DNA of 64,000 nt from an uncultured Bacteroidales bacterium (GTDB taxonomy: Bacteria > Bacteroidota > Bacteroidia > Bacteroidales > VadinHA17), in assembly GCA_963736675.1 (NCBI GenBank), contig CAVTPT010000001.1, forward strand, positions 101,671 to 165,670. The letters run 5' to 3'. How positions within the stretch are numbered: the first letter of the stretch is position 1; each line of letters starts with the position of its first letter. The translations under genes were made by a program, and so were the position numbers. This document shows, piece after piece, positions 53,815 through 62,016 of the stretch. The notes below the pieces were generated by a model, which saw nothing but the letters and a program-made list of their open reading frames with translations, ran no database searches and was not told the DNA's origin.

Positions 53815-55977
53815 ATGAATATCGGGATCAGACAGAGGGATATCTCCGATTGCGGGGCAGCCTGCCTTGCTTCAGTGGCAGCATGGTACAGGGTAAAGGT
53901 TCCGGTTTCAAGGATCAGGCAATATGCCGGGACCGATAAAAAAGGTACAAACGTACTTGGTCTGGTCGAGGCAGCAACAAAAATAGGATTTCTGGCAAAA
54001 GGTGTAAAAGGAGAGTGGGAGAGCCTGTTCAAGATTCCCCGGCCGGCAATAGCTCATGTTATTGTAAAAGGAGTACTGACACACTACGTGGTAATTGTAA
54101 ATATATCGGAATTAATTGTTGAAGTGATGGACCCCGCTGACGGGAAGCTTCACAAAATTTCTCACGAGGAGTTTAAGAAGCAGTGGACCGGGGTTCTCGT
54201 ACTGATCGTTCCGGGGGAGAAATTTACAATGAGGAATGAGGAAGTCGCAGTTACTGCACGGCTGTGGAGACTGATTAAGCCAAACCGCGGCGTACTTCTG
54301 CAGGCTCTTGCAGGGGCACTTTTATTTTCGGTATTGGGACTCTCAATGTCGCTCTATGTCGGCAGACTGGTTGACCATGTCATACCGGGAGGCAATCTGA
54401 ATCTTCTGAACCTGCTTGGCATCGTAATGATTGTCATAATTCTGTTCAGGATATTACTCAGCTTTTTCCAGTCTCTTTTTGTGCTCAGGACGGGTCAAAG
54501 GATAGATGCCTCGTTAATACTTGGATATTATCAGCACCTGCTGAGACTTCCGCAATCATTTTTCGACAATATGCGAACCGGGGAGATCATTTCCAGGATA
54601 GGCGATGCCGTAAAAATAAGGGTATTCATCAACGATGTAACTATTAATCTGATATTGAATATTTTCATCCTGTCGGTTTCCTTTATCCTTATGTTCACAT
54701 TTTTCTGGAAGCTTGCTCTTGTTATGCTCGTTGTTGTACCATTATATTTCTTAATCTATTATATATCCAACAGACTTAACAGGAGGGTGCAGCGAAAGGT
54801 AATGGAGCGTTCTGCAGATCTTGAAGCACAATTTGTGGAATCGCTTAATTCAGCGGGAACAATTAAGAGGTTTGGACTTGAGGAGTATTCAAATTTTAAA
54901 ACTGAGATCAGGTTTACGTCGTTGCTTGAGACTCTTTACAGTTCGGGATTGAATAATATCTTCTCTTCTCTCTCCAGCGGGCTGGTGACACAGCTTATAA
55001 CACTGCTTGTCCTCTGGACCGGAGCAGGATTTGTCCTTTCTGCCCTGATCACTCCCGGCGAATTGCTTTCCTTTTATGCTGTTACCGGGTACTTCACCGG
55101 GCCTGTCACGGGGATAATAGGTTTTAACCGGACCCTGCAGGATGCCAGAATAGCAGCTGACCGTTTATTTGAAATATTTGATCTTGATACGGATGATGAA
55201 TCAGGCAGGATCGAACTTAAGAAAGAGATGGTTGATGATATAAGTTTTGAAGATGTCAGGTTCAGGTACGGAACAAGAGTTGAGGTCTTCAGATCGCTGA
55301 ACCTCAAAATCAGGAAAGGAGAGATAACAGCAATAGCCGGGGAGAGCGGATCAGGCAAGAGTACTCTTGTATCGTTGCTGCAGAACCTTTACCCACTGCA
55401 GGAAGGACATATCAGTATCGGAAGGTATAACCTTCTTCATCTGACAAACAGCTCCATCAGGAAAATTATTTCTGTGGTGCCTCAGAAGATTGATCTTTTT
55501 GCAGGTAATATCTTCGACAATATAGCACCTGGTGAAATCACGCCCGATACTGAAAAGGTAATGGCTGTATGCGAAAAGCTTGGGATGACTCAATTTGTTG
55601 AGAGCCTGCCAAATGGTTTCAGCACCTATATCGGGGAAAACGGAGTGGCCCTTTCAGGGGGACAGAGACAGAGGATCGCAATTGCCAGAGCTCTCTACGG
55701 CGATCCTGAAATAGTGATCCTCGATGAGGCTACCTCTTCTCTTGATGCCCTGGCGGAGATGTTTGTACGTAATGCGCTGAAGATACTTCGTGATGAGGGT
55801 AAAACGGTAATTCTGATAGCTCACAGACTCTCTACCATTAATCTGGCCGACAGTATCATTGTACTTGACAGGGGCGAAGTTGTCCAGAATGGCACATATC
55901 GCGAGTTGTCAGCTGCTGAGGGGCATTTCCGTAAGATGTATTTTCAACAGGGGATTTTAGAAACAGTAACAACCTAA
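53815..55977 (+). CDS. Peptidase-containing ABC transporter (C39 + ABC; double-glycine peptide exporter)
   Basis: QRDISDCGAACL (catalytic Cys), THYVVI, MDPADG; Walker A GESGSGKST, LSGGQRQ, VILDE; start MNIG at 53815. Confidence 0.95.
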   Translation: MNIGIRQRDISDCGAACLASVAAWYRVKVPVSRIRQYAGTDKKGTNVLGLVEAATKIGFLAKGVKGEWESLFKIPRPAIAHVIVKGVLTHYVVIVNISELIVEVMDPADGKLHKISHEEFKKQWTGVLVLIVPGEKFTMRNEEVAVTARLWRLIKPNRGVLLQALAGALLFSVLGLSMSLYVGRLVDHVIPGGNLNLLNLLGIVMIVIILFRILLSFFQSLFVLRTGQRIDASLILGYYQHLLRLPQSFFDNMRTGEIISRIGDAVKIRVFINDVTINLILNIFILSVSFILMFTFFWKLALVMLVVVPLYFLIYYISNRLNRRVQRKVMERSADLEAQFVESLNSAGTIKRFGLEEYSNFKTEIRFTSLLETLYSSGLNNIFSSLSSGLVTQLITLLVLWTGAGFVLSALITPGELLSFYAVTGYFTGPVTGIIGFNRTLQDARIAADRLFEIFDLDTDDESGRIELKKEMVDDISFEDVRFRYGTRVEVFRSLNLKIRKGEITAIAGESGSGKSTLVSLLQNLYPLQEGHISIGRYNLLHLTNSSIRKIISVVPQKIDLFAGNIFDNIAPGEITPDTEKVMAVCEKLGMTQFVESLPNGFSTYIGENGVALSGGQRQRIAIARALYGDPEIVILDEATSSLDALAEMFVRNALKILRDEGKTVILIAHRLSTINLADSIIVLDRGEVVQNGTYRELSAAEGHFRKMYFQQGILETVTT

Positions 55978-55989
55978 ACACTATATGTC

Positions 55990-56331
55990 ATGAAAATATT
56001 TGAATATCTCGATCGCATCGGCAGAATGCACAAGCTGGTTCAAAGGCGGAGAACCGGGACCCCGGAGGAATTTGCGCGGCAGCTGGGCGTAAGCCGTACA
56101 AGTCTGTATGAGTTAATTGATGAATTAAGATCGCGGGGTGCTCCTATTTCTTATTCAAAGGCAGCAAAGACTTATTACTACAGCGAGCCTTTTGATATAT
56201 CAGTAACATGTTCTCTCCGGCCCATGACATACCTTGAGGAAAAACAGGTGTCGGGGGGGAATATTTTCGATAGAATCCTTTTTTTCCGGATCTTAAGTAC
56301 TGAAATTAGTGGTACTGTATTTCAGTGCTAA
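55990..56331 (+). CDS. Small winged-HTH DNA-binding protein with a C-terminal double-glycine-leader-like extension
   Basis: TGTPEEFARQLGVSRTSLYELIDELRSRGAPISY; tail SLRPMTYLEEKQVSGG-NIFDRILFF. Confidence 0.78.
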   Translation: MKIFEYLDRIGRMHKLVQRRRTGTPEEFARQLGVSRTSLYELIDELRSRGAPISYSKAAKTYYYSEPFDISVTCSLRPMTYLEEKQVSGGNIFDRILFFRILSTEISGTVFQC

Positions 56332-56383
56332 AACCCCTGGCCTATAAATGGGGGATCAAAAAAATTAATTAAATTTAATTGTC

Positions 56384-56566
56384 ATGAAAATTGAAAATTT
56401 TTCCGTAAGAGAACTGACCTCCGAGGAGCAGATCCAGATCAACGGAGGAGGCTTTTTTGCTGATGTGTGGGGTGCGATATGCACAGCCGCAAAATGGATT
56501 TGGGAAAATGTAACCTTTTCAGTGGAGTACCAAACCGGTGATTATACATGGAAGGCTTCAACATGA
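56384..56566 (+). CDS. Double-glycine leader peptide precursor (class II bacteriocin-like, Trp-rich core)
   Basis: Leader MKIENFSVRELTSEEQIQINGG fits L-S/T-x-x-E-x-x-x-I-x-G-G; downstream of a C39 PCAT; AT-rich ribosome-binding region. Confidence 0.88.
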   Translation: MKIENFSVRELTSEEQIQINGGGFFADVWGAICTAAKWIWENVTFSVEYQTGDYTWKAST

Positions 56567-56583
56567 AAACTTTTGAATGGTGT

Positions 56584-56613
56584 AAGAGATCAGGAATTCA
56601 TTCCTGATCTCTT
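56584..56613 (+). terminator. Perfect 14-bp hairpin after the peptide gene (terminator or mRNA stabiliser)
   Basis: aagagatcaggaat-tc-attcctgatctctt; no strong U-tract. Confidence 0.6.
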
Positions 56614-56630
56614 GATAATAATATTATTGA

Positions 56631-57824
56631 GTGAAAACTATACTGATTTTGATAAATAAAAACTTCATTGTGAAATACTATTTTATATTATTCTTTCTGG
56701 TTCAATTTTTTAACATTAATTCATTATTTTCTCAAATTAAAGTGAGAATTCAACTTGTTGAAAAAGAATCAAAGTTGACTATTCCTTTTGCATACATAAA
56801 GGTTCCGAGTAAAAATATTGTTTTGAATTCAGATCAGGATGGTTTCTTTTCTACCGAATTATCTAAGAATGACACAATTGAAATAACTCATGTTGCATAT
56901 AAGAGTCTAAGAATTGCATATTCGGATATAGGAAAAAATGCCACAATAGAATTAGATGAATTACCAGTACTACTTAATCCTATAATTATTAGTTCAAAAA
57001 ATGCGGAAATAACTGTTAAAAGAGCGATTGGGGCCACTTACGAATCAATGCAAACTCCAATGAATTTTTCCTGTTTTCGCAAAGATCAAATTACAATAAA
57101 CGATACTTTAGTGACTGAGGCGGATGCAGAAATAATTTATAAACTGAAGAAATTGAATTCTGCTAGTCACGGGGGAAATTTAAAGAGTTATTTAATAAAT
57201 GTTCATGTTTATAAGAATTCTTTGTTTAATAAATTAATGATCCCTAATTATTTTCTTGGGGCGATTTTTGCTCCAATAAACACATTTATTGCCGGGTTTT
57301 CAAAAAATGATGATCAATTATTAAATTTCAGTTATCAAGAAGGAAACGATTCTTTGATTATCGTAGGGGCGAAACCAAAAAAAAATATAAGACCAAAAAA
57401 TGGGGAATTAATAAAACAAGGCAATTTTGTAATAAATAAAAACACTGGAAAATTAATTCAAATTGTAACAAGTTTAAGTCCTGAGATGATGGAATGGGGA
57501 CGGAACAATTCTTCCAGAGAAAAAAATCCTAATCTTTTTTATTATCATTATACATTCTCTCAATATTTTGATCAGGAAGGATTTCCGTCAAGGGTGTCTT
57601 GCAGTATAAAGTTTTCCATTAAAGAAGATAATCCCAATAAAATATGGAGTAATAATTCAGAGCTAATTTTTACAAAATTGTCCCAGGACGATTTAATATT
57701 GGATAAATCCCATGAATTGAATAATGATTCTACCCTTGTCCAGATGAAATCCAGATTTGATCCTGATTTTGAAAAGAGGTTCACCAGATATATTCCTTCT
57801 ACCGGAACCGATAATAATCAATAA
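56631..57824 (+). CDS. Secreted protein with N-terminal CarboxypepD_reg-like domain
   Basis: Signal-like N-terminus, IPFAYIKV...NSDQDGFF...DTIEITHVAYK; very AT-rich; start uncertain (56631 or 56658). Confidence 0.7.
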   Translation: MKTILILINKNFIVKYYFILFFLVQFFNINSLFSQIKVRIQLVEKESKLTIPFAYIKVPSKNIVLNSDQDGFFSTELSKNDTIEITHVAYKSLRIAYSDIGKNATIELDELPVLLNPIIISSKNAEITVKRAIGATYESMQTPMNFSCFRKDQITINDTLVTEADAEIIYKLKKLNSASHGGNLKSYLINVHVYKNSLFNKLMIPNYFLGAIFAPINTFIAGFSKNDDQLLNFSYQEGNDSLIIVGAKPKKNIRPKNGELIKQGNFVINKNTGKLIQIVTSLSPEMMEWGRNNSSREKNPNLFYYHYTFSQYFDQEGFPSRVSCSIKFSIKEDNPNKIWSNNSELIFTKLSQDDLILDKSHELNNDSTLVQMKSRFDPDFEKRFTRYIPSTGTDNNQ

Positions 57825-58042
57825 TTTTAAAGACGGGGTAATCCCGGGGATATATATCCCGATGAAAGACCGGAACTTATTCCTGTAAATATTCCGTGCC
57901 AGCCAGTTACTGGCAGCCCCATCAAAAAAACTATTTCGCCCGCTACGGGGCTTGAATATCATTTGTATATAATATAGGACGGGCTTCGCCCATCCCTGTG
58001 GTATTTCAGGCCTACGGCCTTTAAATCAGAGTGAGAGTGAGT

Positions 58043-59160
58043 GTGAGGAAATCCATTGCACAGAAATAGTACAGCTCTATAAATTGGGTCTGTTTGTATG
58101 AATGCCTGAGCATCTGAATCTGAACGCTGTCAGTGCGGACTACTTTAAACAATCTGGTCACAATTGGATTTGAGCTCCGTAGGAGCGGCCTGTTTGTAGT
58201 AACGCCTGCCCCCTAACGGTTTTAAGCACCGTCAGCGCGGCCTGTAGTTAATTGAAGACAGGTAAATTCCTTTAAGGGTTTTGGATCAACAAGGGTTTCA
58301 TGTCTCCCAAAACAACAGAATCAAAAAACCAGTCCGCCCTGACGGGGCTCGATATTCTTTTCATGATTGATTTCTACAAACAGTCCGCCCCCACGGGGCT
58401 GAAGAAGGAGCGAGAGTGAGGAAATCCATTGCACAGAAATAGTACAGCTCTATAAATTGGATTTGTTTATAGAAATACCTGAGACCTCAGGATCTGAGCA
58501 CCGTCGGCGCGGCCTTCCTGTAACAATCTGGTCACCATTGGTTTTGAGCTCCGTAGGAGCGGCCTGTTTGTAGTAATGCCTGCCCCCTAACGGTTTTAAG
58601 CACCCTCAGCGCGGCCTGTAGTTAATTGAAGACAGGTAAATTCCTTTAAGGGTTTTGGATCAACAAGGGTTTCATGTCTCCCAAAACAACAGAATCAAAA
58701 AACCAGTCCGCCCTGACGGGGCTCGATATTCTTTTCATGATTGATTTCTACAAACAGTCCGCCCCCACGGGGCTGAAGAAGGAGCGAGAGTGAGTAAATC
58801 CATTGCACAGAAATAGTACAGCTCTATAAATTGGATTTGTTTGTAGAAATACCTGAGACCTCAGGATCTGAGCGCCGTAGGTGCGGCCTTCCTGTAACAA
58901 TCTGGTCACCATTGGTTTTGAGCTCCGTAGGAGCGGCCTGTTTGTAGTAACGCCTGCCTCCAACGGTTTTGAGCGCCGTCAGCGCGGCCTGTAGTTAATT
59001 GAAGACAGGTAATTTCCTTTAAGGGTTTTGGATCACCAAGGGTCTCATGTCTCCCGAAACAACAGAATCAATAACCAGTCCGCCCTGACGGGGCTCGATT
59101 TTCTTTTCATGATTGATTTCTACAAACAGTCCGCCCCCACGGGGCTGAAGAAAGAGTGAG
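58043..59160. repeat. Three tandem ~374-bp units built from REP-like hairpins in both orientations (BIME-like)
   Basis: aaatccattgcacag at 58049, 58422, 58796; agctccgtaggagcggcctgtttgtag (58173) inverted against ctacaaacagtccgcccccacggggct (58374). Confidence 0.9.
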
Positions 59161-59173
59161 AGTGAGAGCAGGT

Positions 59174-59220
59174 AAAAAGAGAGTCCCCGGATGTGGATTA
59201 CCAGCGAAAATCCGGGGACT
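59174..59220 (-). terminator. Intrinsic terminator, - strand, unit 1
   Basis: agtccccggat/atccggggact stem followed on the - strand by ctcttttt. Confidence 0.7.
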
Positions 59221-59543
59221 CGAACCGTTCATATGATGCCTGAACGGTCATCAAGCACAGTGAAACGCAGCGAAAGTGCCTGAAAAATCAGGAGAAGGCA
59301 TTATCAATCGGAACTAATTTTCTGCTCTGCTTTATAAATGGGAAATCATATTAAGCATTTTTTTCAGAATCATATTCATTAACCTGTTCACATTGTACTA
59401 CAATTTTAAAAAGACCCGGGGACACAAAAATGAGCAAAGCATATGTTCTACAGCATATTATTGATAATTTATATCTGTTACATAGGATTTTCAGATCGTG
59501 CTATATATTTAATCTTGTAGAAAAAGTGAGTGTGAGGACAGGT

Positions 59544-59589
59544 AAAAAAAGAGTCCCCGGATATTGATCAGCAACAATAATCCGGGGAC
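59544..59589 (-). terminator. Intrinsic terminator, - strand, unit 2
   Basis: gtccccggat/atccggggac stem followed on the - strand by tcttttttt. Confidence 0.72.
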
Positions 59590-59780
59590 ATGGTTTTGAA
59601 AACCAACCGTTCATATGATGCCTGAACGGTCATCAAGCACGGTGAAATGCAGCGAAAGTGCCTGAAAGTCAGGAGGAGGCATTGTCAATAGGAGCTAATC
59701 TTCTGCTCTGCTGTATAAGTGGAGGTTCATATTAAACATTTTTTTCAGAATCATATTCATTAACCTGTTCACATTGTACT
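59544..59780 (-). ncRNA. Candidate ~230-nt structured small RNA (second copy ~59174-59400)
   Basis: No conserved ORF above 21 aa, conserved hairpins, own terminator, duplicated. Confidence 0.3.
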
Positions 59781-59838
59781 ACAATTTTAAAAAGACCCGG
59801 GGACACAAAAATGGACAAAGCGTATGATCTACAACATA

Positions 59839-60048
59839 TTATTGATAATTTTCGTCTGTTACATAGCTTTTTCTGATCGGACAGTATCTTATCTCATTGC
59901 CCGATTTCCGGAGTTCAGAAATAATCCGTTTGACACTTCTTTCACTAATTTCAAGTCTTGTCGCAAGCTCTGCAGGAGTCCCGGTGCACTTTAGGGAAAC
60001 AAGCCTGCTTATCCTGACTTTCAGATTATGACTATTGTTCCTGGCCAT
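59839..60048 (-). CDS. Small winged-HTH protein, paralog of 55990-56331
   Basis: TGTPAELATRLEISERSVKRIISELRKSGNEIRY..RKSY. Confidence 0.8.
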   Translation of the reverse strand: MARNNSHNLKVRISRLVSLKCTGTPAELATRLEISERSVKRIISELRKSGNEIRYCPIRKSYVTDENYQ

Positions 60049-60228
60049 AATATTCAGATTTAATTACCATTAAATCGAGGCAGACAGTATAAAATTAAAC
60101 CTTATCTGAATAAAAGTCAAGAAATTTTAGGGATTTTTAGTAAATACTTTAGAGACAGATTCCTTAACAGGATTTCTGATCAACTTTTTTCCGGTTCAGG
60201 TAAGATATAAAAAGAAGTAACAAACATA

Positions 60229-62016
60229 TCACCTTTCAAACCTGCTGTTTTGCTTTGTATACATTGCGAAATAGAGCCCGCCTTTTTTCATCAGTTCCCC
60301 GTGGGTGCCCGATTCAATAATTTCACCCCTGTCAAGTACAATGATCTTATCGGCCAGCGAGACATTTGTAAAACGGTGACTAATCAGGATGGCTGTCCTG
60401 TCGCTGACTGTTTCCCTGAACCTGCTGAAGATCTCAAATTCGGTGTCTGCATCCAGAGCGCTCGACGGCTCATCGAGAATAAGTACAGGGGCATCCCTGA
60501 ATATGGCCCTCGCCAGGGCAATTTTCTGCCATTCCCCCCAGCTAAGCTCCCTGCTGTCGTCAAGAAGGGTCCCGATATTTGTATCGTAACCTTCAGGAAG
60601 TGAGCTGATCAGTTCATGAACCCCCGACTCCAGGGCTGCTTTCTTTATCTTAATTTCAGGATCAGCTGAATCAAGATCACCAATCCGGATATTTTCTCCT
60701 GCCCTGAGGTTGTACAGCATAAAGTCCTGGAAAACCACTGAAAAGAGTCTTCTGTACTTTTCAGGATCAATGTTCCTTATGTTATTACCATCGATTCTGA
60801 CCGACCCGGTAGCCGGATCATATAACCTTGTCAGAAGTCGTACAAGGGTACTTTTACCCCCGCCGTTAGGTCCTACAACAGCCAGTATCTCCCCTTTTTT
60901 GATCTCAAAGGATACATTGTTTATTGCCGGGGATTTATTACCCGGATATGTAAATGACAGATTCTCAACCTCTATATTTTTCATAAGGGTTGAAACTGAT
61001 ACAACAGGAGGTGCAGCTGTTATTTTTTCTTCAAGGCTGAGGAATTCAAATGTATCGCCAATGAAAAGACTATCCTCATAAAGCCCTGCCAGCGAGCCAA
61101 AAAGCTCTTTAATAAATATCATACCCTGACGGAATGCGAGAAGGAACATTGCCATCTCACCGAGAGTCAGACTGTTATTTATTGTTTTGTTTACGGTGAA
61201 CAGGATAAGGAAAAGCATTGCGGCAGCTTTCACAATATCCGAGACTATCTCAATAAGCATTCTCTTCCGGGCAATGTTGATTTCCTCTTCCTTAACACTA
61301 AGAAATGATTTCCGGAAGAGGCTGATGAAATACTCCCCAAGTCCGAATAATCTCAATTCCCGTGACGGTCTCTCCCCGGTTATCAGCCAGTTGAAATATG
61401 CCGACCTCCTTGATTCGGGGGTCTGTTCTCTCTGAAAAGTATAAAGAACATCGGCGTAATGTAGTCTGAGCCAGATCCCCGGGATATTCACAACAAACAG
61501 AAGCAGTGCCATGGTCCAGTGAAGAGAAACAAGAAGAAATGCCATCATGATCAGAGAAAGTAATGCCCGCATCATCAGAATAAGGTTATTCAGAATGCTG
61601 TTGGGCCGCCATGGAGCTTCCCTTGCAGCCCGGGTCAGCAAGTCGAAATATCCGGGATATTCGAAATTGATAAGGTCGAGTTTTACAGCCTTTGAATGAA
61701 GCAGATTGTACATGTGGATCTCCAGCTTCATCGATTGTTTCTTCTTGACATAATTGCCGAAATCGGAGACAGCTTCATCGATAAAATATAATATTACAAC
61801 AGCAGCAATGATCCCTATAATATCATTAATGGATTTATCTCCTGTGTCAGAAACCGTGAGTGTTATCTGATCGACAAGAATTTTTATAAGCAGGAGCAGA
61901 GCAAGGGGTGTGAAGCTGCGGATAACAGAGACCAGTGTGTTAACAAGCGCCCATCCGGGTGCACTCTGCCAGACAAGGACCAGTGATTCCCGGAACAACT
62001 TATACTTTTCTCTCAT
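60229..62016 (-). CDS. ABC exporter, fused permease/ATPase (RiPP-cassette type)
   Basis: Six TM segments, GPNGGGKST, LSWGEWQKIALAR, ILDEPSSALD, LISHR. Confidence 0.92.
   Translation of the reverse strand: MREKYKLFRESLVLVWQSAPGWALVNTLVSVIRSFTPLALLLLIKILVDQITLTVSDTGDKSINDIIGIIAAVVILYFIDEAVSDFGNYVKKKQSMKLEIHMYNLLHSKAVKLDLINFEYPGYFDLLTRAAREAPWRPNSILNNLILMMRALLSLIMMAFLLVSLHWTMALLLFVVNIPGIWLRLHYADVLYTFQREQTPESRRSAYFNWLITGERPSRELRLFGLGEYFISLFRKSFLSVKEEEINIARKRMLIEIVSDIVKAAAMLFLILFTVNKTINNSLTLGEMAMFLLAFRQGMIFIKELFGSLAGLYEDSLFIGDTFEFLSLEEKITAAPPVVSVSTLMKNIEVENLSFTYPGNKSPAINNVSFEIKKGEILAVVGPNGGGKSTLVRLLTRLYDPATGSVRIDGNNIRNIDPEKYRRLFSVVFQDFMLYNLRAGENIRIGDLDSADPEIKIKKAALESGVHELISSLPEGYDTNIGTLLDDSRELSWGEWQKIALARAIFRDAPVLILDEPSSALDADTEFEIFSRFRETVSDRTAILISHRFTNVSLADKIIVLDRGEIIESGTHGELMKKGGLYFAMYTKQNSRFER

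Follow-up and report, generated by a model that had tools for sequence, protein, structure and literature searches.

We identified a structured RNA element directly downstream of a small helix-turn-helix (HTH) regulator gene in a 64,000-nt stretch of DNA (hereafter the window) from an uncultured Bacteroidales bacterium (assembly GCA_963736675.1, contig CAVTPT010000001.1), where two tandem copies occupy positions 59146-59915 of the minus strand. Comparison with related genomes leaves us highly confident that the element is a member of a structured RNA family that is genuine, conserved, previously undescribed, and tied to the HTH gene. Its known range is a single large uncultured genus of Bacteroidales. 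The fuller statement, that this is a new structured RNA family, present here in two copies and acting as a regulator-linked small RNA (sRNA), we hold to be slightly better than an even bet. The element had been flagged in an earlier reading of the window's letters (the original prediction) as a duplicated, separately terminated unit of ~220-230 nt, perhaps an HTH-controlled small RNA or a cis-regulatory RNA retained in two copies. The gene and the two repeat units are placed as follows:

59839-60048, minus strand: gene for the 69-aa HTH_11 regulator (Pfam HTH_11, E = 3e-5), with the RNA element 3' of its stop codon
59516-59915, minus strand: repeat unit B, proximal, running from the last ~22 HTH codons to just beyond terminator B (unit alignment and repeat families)
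59146-59530, minus strand: repeat unit A, distal, consisting of the same element preceded by a degenerate HTH 3' end that contains in-frame stops (unit alignment and sequence reading)

A conserved RNA family tied to an HTH gene

Searches against Rfam 15 (4227 models) gave no match at the gathering score in the whole window and none at E <= 10 within 59146-59915 on either strand; at E = 10 over 55500-60500 on both strands, there were only two noise matches, both elsewhere. The element is therefore not a known Rfam family; a match to one was among the outcomes that the original prediction had said would refute it. A BLAST DNA search of 60 relatives recovered scraps only. Orthologs of the HTH protein with 45-66% identity are encoded in many genomes of the same genus, and a search with nhmmer found the DNA downstream of these orthologs to be homologous to the window unit along its whole length. 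The homologous region is built of conserved blocks separated by spacers of variable length: CAGGCAC..cTCGCTGC..N5-13..GTGCTTG, a variable hairpin, GGTC-GYCCT-GACC, and GTCCCCGG..tGCTGATT..CCGGGGAC followed by a T run. Together these form a core of ~130 nt comprising helix P1, helices P2a and P2b, and an intrinsic terminator, with a GC content across the family of 0.41-0.58.

A covariance model built from 28 sequences, with P1 of 8 bp, P2b of 5 bp, and a terminator of 10 bp, matched the core in 135 of the 201 species of the genus, usually once per genome and in about 100 of them at E < 1e-10. There were no matches in 300 other genomes of the order, drawn from 208 genera. An HTH ortholog lies directly upstream on the same strand at 43/43 and 38/40 loci (81/83 together), so the proposed tie between the RNA and the HTH gene is borne out, and upstream of the ortholog there is usually an ABC exporter gene. 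The loci come in two forms. In the short form (26 of 85 loci), the core starts ~25 nt past the HTH stop codon without a promoter-like box; in the long form (59/85, including the window), a palindrome and a box lie between gene and core, which begins ~175 nt past the stop. The core is on the same strand as the HTH gene, shares its terminator, and falls inside its 3' region, as is found for sRNAs derived from 3' untranslated regions (UTRs).

Nothing is conserved downstream of the terminator. What comes next in the window is a repeat array and a convergent gene, and each relative has a different downstream sequence. A riboswitch or other cis-regulatory leader was ruled out for this reason, as no conserved gene lies downstream of the element. 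Long purine-rich or short-unit tandem repeats stand directly after the terminator in many relatives (loci L027, L042, L046, L030, L033, and L032, with GAGGGAGAGAGG..., GGGGCGGGGAGC..., and ATGTATTATGTTAT in n copies); their equivalent in the window is CTCACTCTCAC. We also rejected a repetitive extragenic palindromic (REP) sequence, a miniature inverted-repeat transposable element, or the end of a mobile element. The window's 4.06-Mb genome holds only the two tandem units, the element is a syntenic single copy in ~100 species, and comparison with plasmids and phages gave no match for it; the mobile-element end named as a possible refutation of the original prediction is thus answered by the same facts.

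Covariation and strand

Pairing was counted over 23 modelled pairs in 85 distinct sequences, in an alignment fitted to the model, and compared with 500 column shuffles. Standard pairs filled 87.2% of cells against 77.4% in the shuffles, none of which (0/500) reached the observed value. Changes on both sides were seen in 20 of the 23 pairs, with 188 compensatory cells compared to 62 in shuffles, so the covariation among homologs on which the original prediction had been made to depend is present. In controls that preserve relatedness, with the 3' partner shifted by 1-3 columns, only 26-57% of cells paired and the covariation score was 0.04-0.08 instead of 0.32. Smaller sequence sets behaved in the same way. 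All eight pairs of P1 changed on both sides, with examples such as CAGGCAC/GTGCTTG, CAGGTGCG/CGTACCTG, CCAGAC/GTCTGG, and GGCAAT/ATTGCT. P2b (helix 2) is paired in 93.5% of cells, again with both-side changes in all five pairs, and the terminator (helix 3) in 96.5%. At the P2a position, 73 of the 85 sequences, unrelated to one another there, form a hairpin of 4 bp or longer; the mean energy is -5.0 kcal/mol versus -1.6 kcal/mol in shuffles.

The counts are also strand-specific. There are 208 G-U cells and 15 A-C cells, and pairing drops from 87% to 77% if the alignment is read on the plus strand. This excess of G-U pairs, together with the T run after the last helix, assigns the RNA to the minus strand of the window, which is the sense strand for the HTH gene. 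It also bears on the idea that the units work as DNA, as protein-binding or recombination sites or a REP-like sequence, with no RNA involved. Such a role would fit the neighboring array of three 374-bp units of dispersed REP-like hairpins and the presence of GAGTGAGAGTGAG at every unit junction, but a G-U excess that depends on strand would be meaningless for duplex DNA, the T run ends each unit on the sense strand only, and the single syntenic copy in ~100 species has no dispersed counterparts in its own genome. We regard a purely DNA-level element as very improbable.

The most invariant letters of the family are in its loops and not in its helices: cUCGCUGC in that of P1 (90% or more) and, in that of the terminator, uGCUGAUU (60-90%), the latter holding the conserved UGCUGAUU. 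A pairing between the terminator loop and a conserved 5' AUCAGCA segment was considered and dropped, since it shows no compensatory change and is missing in short-form loci and in the window. The original prediction of a structured minus-strand element thus stands in that the element is conserved, structured, non-coding and covarying. The anatomy it stressed does not, because the parts that are kept across the family are the P1 UCGCUGC loop, the GGUC/GACC hairpin (deleted in one of the window's copies, copy A), and the UGCUGAUU terminator loop.

Two tandem copies in the window

A repeat search of the window and a whole-unit alignment both recover the two ~380-bp units that had been described: 59146-59915 consists of two head-to-tail units of ~381 bp each, which share 90% identity in a minus-strand alignment of 403 columns. 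The direct-repeat pairs are 59284-59509 and 59665-59890 (87%), 59223-59285 and 59605-59667 (97%), and 59146-59219 and 59516-59589 (82%). As unit B starts within the HTH tail and unit A repeats all of it, the duplication copied the tail of the gene, the downstream element, and the terminator. It is a recent local tandem duplication of ~381 bp, from inside the HTH 3' end to just beyond the terminator, and it is specific to this genome, a single copy being the norm in the genus. The structural parts of the two copies are:

59633-59665, minus strand: copy B helix P1, TCAGGCAC/GTGCTTGA, with the loop motif TCGCTGC at 59655-59649 (covariance-model match of 90 bits)
59251-59283, minus strand: copy A helix P1, with TCGCTGC at 59273-59267 (covariance-model match of 64 bits)
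59606-59630, minus strand: copy B helix P2a, ACCGTTCA-GGCATCATA-TGAACGGT, at the variable hairpin position of the family
59224-59248, minus strand: copy A helix P2a, identical to copy B
59591-59605, minus strand: copy B helix P2b, TGGTTTT-C-AAAACCA, counterpart of the family GGUC-GYCCU-GACC hairpin (85-sequence alignment)
59544-59589, minus strand: copy B intrinsic terminator, GTCCCCGG...CCGGGGAC plus T7, with the family motif GCTGAT in the loop
59174-59221, minus strand: copy A terminator, with the altered loop GCTGGTAAT; a 12-nt deletion just upstream removes P2b

Most of the local details noted earlier are found in these parts. Both terminators (59221-59174 and 59589-59544) have a GC-rich stem of 10-12 bp followed by a T run and, as had been read, the same stems, GTCCCCGG/CCGGGGAC, with different loops. 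The 8-bp hairpin ACCGTTCA/TGAACGGT is present at 59248-59224 and 59630-59606, and the gcac/gtgc stem turns out to belong to P1 of the family, TCAGGCAC/GTGCTTGA. Also present, at 59292-59279 and 59673-59661, is the cctga/tcagg stem. It uses the same TCAGG as the 5' arm of P1, so the two helices are mutually exclusive. The arrangement CCUGA-YUU(U)-UCAGG also occurs in the relatives L025 and L078 (CCTGACCATCAGG and CTGACGATCAGG), and this hairpin may be an alternative fold. The proposed pseudoknot fared less well: AATGCCT (59302-59296 and 59683-59677) is able to pair with the AGGCAT hairpin loop, and the segments are identical in both copies, but the pairing is specific to this genome, not conserved in the family, and the hairpin varies among relatives. 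A brute-force scan of column pairs was uninformative about pseudoknots. A hammerhead-like CUUGAUGA in the window was set aside, being unconserved in relatives and without a match to a ribozyme model. Single-sequence folding gave z-scores, relative to shuffles, of -3.6 and -2.6 for the minus strand compared with -2.8 for the plus strand. With z-scores this modest and the plus strand about as good, the window is not decisive by itself, and the case rests on the comparative data.

The two copies are not equally well preserved. Copy B is intact and scores 90 bits with the covariance model; copy A scores 64 bits, having lost the P2b hairpin to the 12-nt deletion and changed its terminator loop. Runs of 77 nt (the promoter-like box and 5' end) and 36 nt (the P1 3' arm to P2a) are 100% identical between them, amid ~15% divergence elsewhere, a pattern that suggests constraint or gene conversion in place of uniform decay. 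The claim that the element was retained in two copies therefore holds in part: both copies are there, but they arose by a local tandem duplication that includes ~22 HTH codons, one copy is usual in the genus, and the distal copy is the lower-scoring one (64 versus 90 bits). It may be that the units in the window are a neutral tandem duplication without a function of its own, with copy A decaying and only the family as a whole of importance. The dead HTH fragment, missing P2b, altered terminator loop, and reduced score of copy A are all in keeping with this, as is the rarity of second strong copies, which besides this genome were found only in G235 and G161 among genomes with a model match. The perfect 77- and 36-nt runs speak against it, and we consider a neutral duplication improbable.

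In G235 (C1:381619-385470; loci L241 and L242), two full modules of HTH gene, palindrome, box, and RNA lie 3 kb apart. In the second module the HTH has diverged (45% identity) and the core is weaker (43 bits); this represents an independent whole-module duplication. The array next to the units in our window (58011-59166) comprises three tandem 374-bp units of GAGCnCCGTnnGnGCGGmCTG hairpin motifs in both orientations, pieces of which recur at about a dozen other sites in the genome (contigs C2 and C4) and have the look of REP sequences or bacterial interspersed mosaic elements. GAGTGAGAGTGAG is found at every junction of the 374-bp units and of the RNA units (59146 and 59516), and these short repeats may have driven the formation of both tandem arrays.

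Promoter-like box and palindromes

Between the HTH gene and the core, the long form carries the sequence TGTCCCCGGnGTTTTTTAAAmTTG, conserved in 59/85 loci, with a longer version reading CCATTTTTCTGTCCCCGGnGTTTTTTAAAmTTG. The -7 consensus of Bacteroidetes promoters is TAnnTTTG (PMC7366714), and the end of the box matches it at 7/8 positions. In the window, the corresponding features, with the palindromes and short open reading frames (ORFs) around them, are:

59773-59812, minus strand: promoter-like box B, TTTG-N16-TAAAATTG, with the -7-like box at 59789-59782 and a predicted start near 59776; it includes the 13-bp palindrome
59392-59431, minus strand: promoter-like box A, inside the 77-nt run that is 100% identical to copy B, with the -7-like box at 59408-59401
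59822-59841, no strand assigned: copy B of the family palindrome (ATATGTT-GTAT-AACATAT), overlapping the HTH stop codon; a candidate operator, degenerate here
59441-59460, no strand assigned: copy A of the family palindrome, ATATGCTGTAGAACATAT, with one arm mismatch
59695-59760, minus strand: copy B 21-aa ORF, MNMILKKMFNMNLHLYSRAED; the copy A version (59379-59332) stops after 15 aa, and it is not a conserved coding sequence

From the -7-like boxes at 59789-59782 and 59408-59401, RNAs of ~230 and ~220 nt are predicted, so the length estimate of ~220-230 nt agrees with the distance from box to terminator. The original prediction also pointed to a 13-bp palindrome, ATTGTAGTACAAT, overlapping the TAAAATTG box. 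Both are present (59431-59392 and 59812-59773) and the box is conserved in relatives, but this palindrome is specific to the genome. The palindrome that the family conserves is a different one, ATATGTTGTATAACATAT, which overlaps the HTH stop codon and is kept in the long-form loci of relatives. A genome-wide palindrome search found a near-perfect extra example, ATATGCTGTACAACATAT, at C2:512298-512315 of the window's genome (G000), ~110 nt upstream of a gene for an ABC-type ATPase; it may be a chance occurrence or another site for the HTH protein, the two being indistinguishable.

Two ORFs on the plus strand of the window, 59430-59567 (MSKAYVLQHIIDNLYLLH..., 45 aa) and 59812-59877 (MDKAYDLQHIIDNFRLLHSFF, 21 aa), start at the CCAT of the box and run antisense through the palindrome into the HTH 3' end. 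Relatives have a similar plus-strand MDNRYVIQHIIDNLR... peptide, with lengths of 16, 21, and 45 aa. The likeness of these peptides follows from constraint on the palindrome and on the HTH coding sequence.

The peptide-phosphorylation cluster and coding potential

The HTH gene is the last gene of a cluster resembling those for linear polyphosphorylated peptides (LPPs). On the minus strand, it is preceded by genes for a PqqD-like protein (63748-63461), an HprK-like kinase (63371-62484), a SipW-type signal peptidase (62509-62000), and an ABC exporter (62016-60229), with the 69-aa HTH_11 regulator (60048-59839) at the end. A ~290-aa protein that looks like a nucleotidyltransferase (LppN-like), judging by its sequence, is encoded between the ABC exporter and HTH genes of some relatives (e.g., L059, 1-867); the window's cluster is without it. 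A paralogous HTH gene at 55990-56331 is followed by a double-glycine peptide gene.

A candidate precursor for the cluster lies elsewhere on the contig. It is a 60-aa ORF with a leader-like YxxPxI motif on the minus strand at C1:95608-95790 of G000, MSVRKQYIRPEIIRVGLDNTISLVMMT...SPFGDKPFS, ~6 kb before the window start and ~66 kb from the RNA locus, between genes for two ~950-aa secreted proteins. Similar precursor-like sequences, with the consensus ..KK.Y.KPE..R..LDNSISLVMMT..PPNPPPRG...SPFGDKPF, are found in 68 of 151 genomes of the genus, often 60-80 kb from the HTH and RNA locus on the same contig. It is plausible that the 60-aa ORF is a substrate of the PqqD/HprK/SipW/ABC genes. Many of its orthologs (among them L254, L255, L269, L272, and L274) have no ATG at the expected start. 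Upstream they share a conserved GCATTTGAAGACTATAGATC, and translation could actually begin at an in-frame TTG within it.

Another possibility is that the RNA unit itself encodes a small protein or is a dual-function RNA, giving rise, for example, to a secreted peptide or a substrate of the neighboring kinase, peptidase, and exporter, with the structure lying in the coding region and 3' UTR. Three observations favor this: in one subclade, an ORF beginning MGFNLxNISIG... starts 32-34 nt past the -7-like box and is exactly 41 aa long in ~10 genomes; short-form loci can be read as ...SGTxRCxxxCA*; and the paralogous HTH gene at 55990-56331 precedes a peptide gene. Most of the coding evidence runs the other way. 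The ATG is replaced in 6/29 loci and several loci have early stops, the distance from ATG to TCGCTGC modulo 3 is 0, 1, or 2 in 15, 9, and 5 loci, so that TCGCTGC is read in all three frames across clades, and the spacers between conserved blocks differ by non-multiples of 3. In L064 and L070, a reading of the sequence shows the "conserved" frame running on through the terminator. The window's own ORFs agree with the earlier description (21 aa at 59760-59695 and an earlier stop, after 15 aa, at 59379-59332), but they are unrelated to MGFNL and differ between copies.

Nor does the unit resemble an LPP precursor. LPP recognition domains require a YxxP leader motif (PMC13381572). The RNA unit has no conserved ORF and no YxxP leader, a WxxP-like motif appearing in only three subclade ORFs, and a separate candidate precursor family with YxxP exists, represented at C1:95608-95790. 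We therefore rejected a small ORF as the main explanation on the grounds of shifting frame, lost ATG, and early stops; these, with the unrelated window ORFs, indicate that constraint at the nucleotide level is primary. A clade-specific dual function as RNA and peptide is conceivable, and a small-protein or dual-function explanation of the family seems quite improbable.

Proposed mode of action

We propose that the element works as a regulatory sRNA through its loops, a reading to which we give slightly less than an even chance. In long-form loci, an RNA of ~220-230 nt would start at the -7-like box TAAAATTG, just downstream of the stop-codon palindrome, which, from its conservation and position, is the likely candidate operator of the HTH protein. 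In short-form loci, the core would serve as the HTH mRNA's 3' end or be released as that end. The two near-invariant loops would serve as recognition surfaces, either for pairing with target mRNAs or for a protein, and the helices may covary because they need only hold the shape.

Several points weigh against this proposal. Fitting the alignment to the model favors structure in the pair counts, and P1 is paired in only 71.5% of cells; the low value is attributable to an L028-type clade that seems to close P1 differently, with a more distant AGCAC. The 41-aa subclade ORF, constant in length, runs into P1 and ends just past it. The promoter-like box is imperfect: only A or C is found at position 5 of TAnnTTTG, and the 16-nt spacing from TTTG to the box is shorter than usual. 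Searches for trans targets were negative as well. A genome-wide search of the window's genome placed no complement of the loops at a start codon. When the operon mRNA was scanned for duplexes, the matches were either specific to one copy or at chance level, and not conserved; in the candidate precursor mRNA they were likewise at chance level and not conserved.

The start regions of the precursor and its 29 orthologs likewise have no conserved complementarity or resemblance to the loops, and a TCGCT/GCTGATG resemblance in the precursor start region was discarded because it is not conserved in the 29 orthologs. A 12-mer identical to the copy B terminator loop at C1:233488 is in the same sense as a surface-protein mRNA and so is not a target.

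The main rival is a purely cis-acting 3' UTR element that stabilizes, terminates, or steers processing of the HTH or operon mRNA, with the loops as sites for a ribonuclease or a protective factor. The negative target searches are what this would lead one to expect, and it draws further weight from the linkage to the HTH gene at 81/83 loci and from the 26/85 cores that begin ~25 nt past the stop without a box and are thus part of the HTH mRNA there. Set against it are a length of ~130 nt with two invariant loops, more than a simple stabilizer needs; a highly conserved promoter-like box between gene and core in the long-form loci; and copy A, which has no intact upstream gene and yet keeps a box that is 100% identical. 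A solely cis-acting role is unlikely in our estimation, though it deserves more weight than any other alternative to an sRNA that acts through its loops.

A more elaborate possibility is that the HTH protein, a 69-aa winged-helix protein, and the RNA form a dedicated protein-RNA module. The UCGCUGC and UGCUGAUU loops both contain GCUG, and they might be bound by the HTH protein or by a component of the peptide-phosphorylation machinery, with the RNA coupling the cluster to the precursor gene ~66 kb away. We offer this as a long shot.

Relation to known systems and significance

The closest parallels within the phylum are the sRNAs of Bacteroides thetaiotaomicron (GibS, BTnc028, and others), which are intergenic or 3' UTR-derived and have a TAnnTTTG-type promoter or share the terminator of the upstream mRNA (PMC7366714). 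The new family is similar in its length of ~130-230 nt, its intrinsic terminator end, and its conserved single-stranded stretches, which are proposed seeds here. It has no sequence or structure match to those sRNAs, and it is a predicted RNA known from sequence alone. Its motifs occupy the loops of hairpins, including that of the terminator, unlike the open 5' seed of the B. thetaiotaomicron sRNAs, its GC content is higher (0.41-0.58), and it is confined to an uncultured genus.

Comparative surveys have also produced orphan Bacteroidetes motifs in Rfam, such as Bacteroidales-1 and Bacteroides-1, which have a covarying structure, a fixed neighbor, and an undefined function. Our family is like them in kind and is not a member, as no Rfam model matches at E = 10. 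Adjacent pairs of regulator and small RNA are known from OxyR-OxyS and GcvA-GcvB, and multi-copy small RNAs from Qrr1-5 and PrrF1/2, the latter in tandem. As in OxyR-OxyS and GcvA-GcvB, a regulator gene stands beside the RNA, and a candidate palindromic site lies by the RNA's promoter-like box. The arrangement differs in that gene and RNA are co-directional, tail to head, and not divergent, with the palindrome overlapping the regulator's stop codon, and in that a third of species have no box, the RNA there being the regulator's 3' UTR.

The LPP clusters of Bacillota have the order lppA-K-B-S-D-N (PMC13381572). The genes preceding the HTH gene correspond to it, with a PqqD-like recognition protein, an HprK-like kinase, a SipW-type peptidase, and an ABC exporter, and the nucleotidyltransferase-like gene between exporter and HTH gene in relatives would complete the K-B-S-D-N order. 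In the sections of that account drawn on here, no HTH gene or RNA is mentioned at the end of those clusters (PMC13381572). The Bacteroidales precursor candidate is also ~66 kb away, and the RNA falls outside the pathway as described.

Small-RNA biology in the Bacteroidota is known almost only from a few gut species, and this family comes from uncultured Bacteroidales of wetland and soil. Its covariation is unusually clear, its partner gene is fixed, and the loops of two of its hairpins, including that of the terminator, are invariant in sequence; the alignment of 85 sequences and the model are ready for curation as a new RNA family. Its position at the end of a type of peptide-phosphorylation cluster first described in 2026 provides a testable handle on how such clusters are controlled. 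If the protein-RNA module were true, it would constitute an RNA link within a split pathway for a peptide that is made by the ribosome and modified after translation (RiPP), of a kind not described before.

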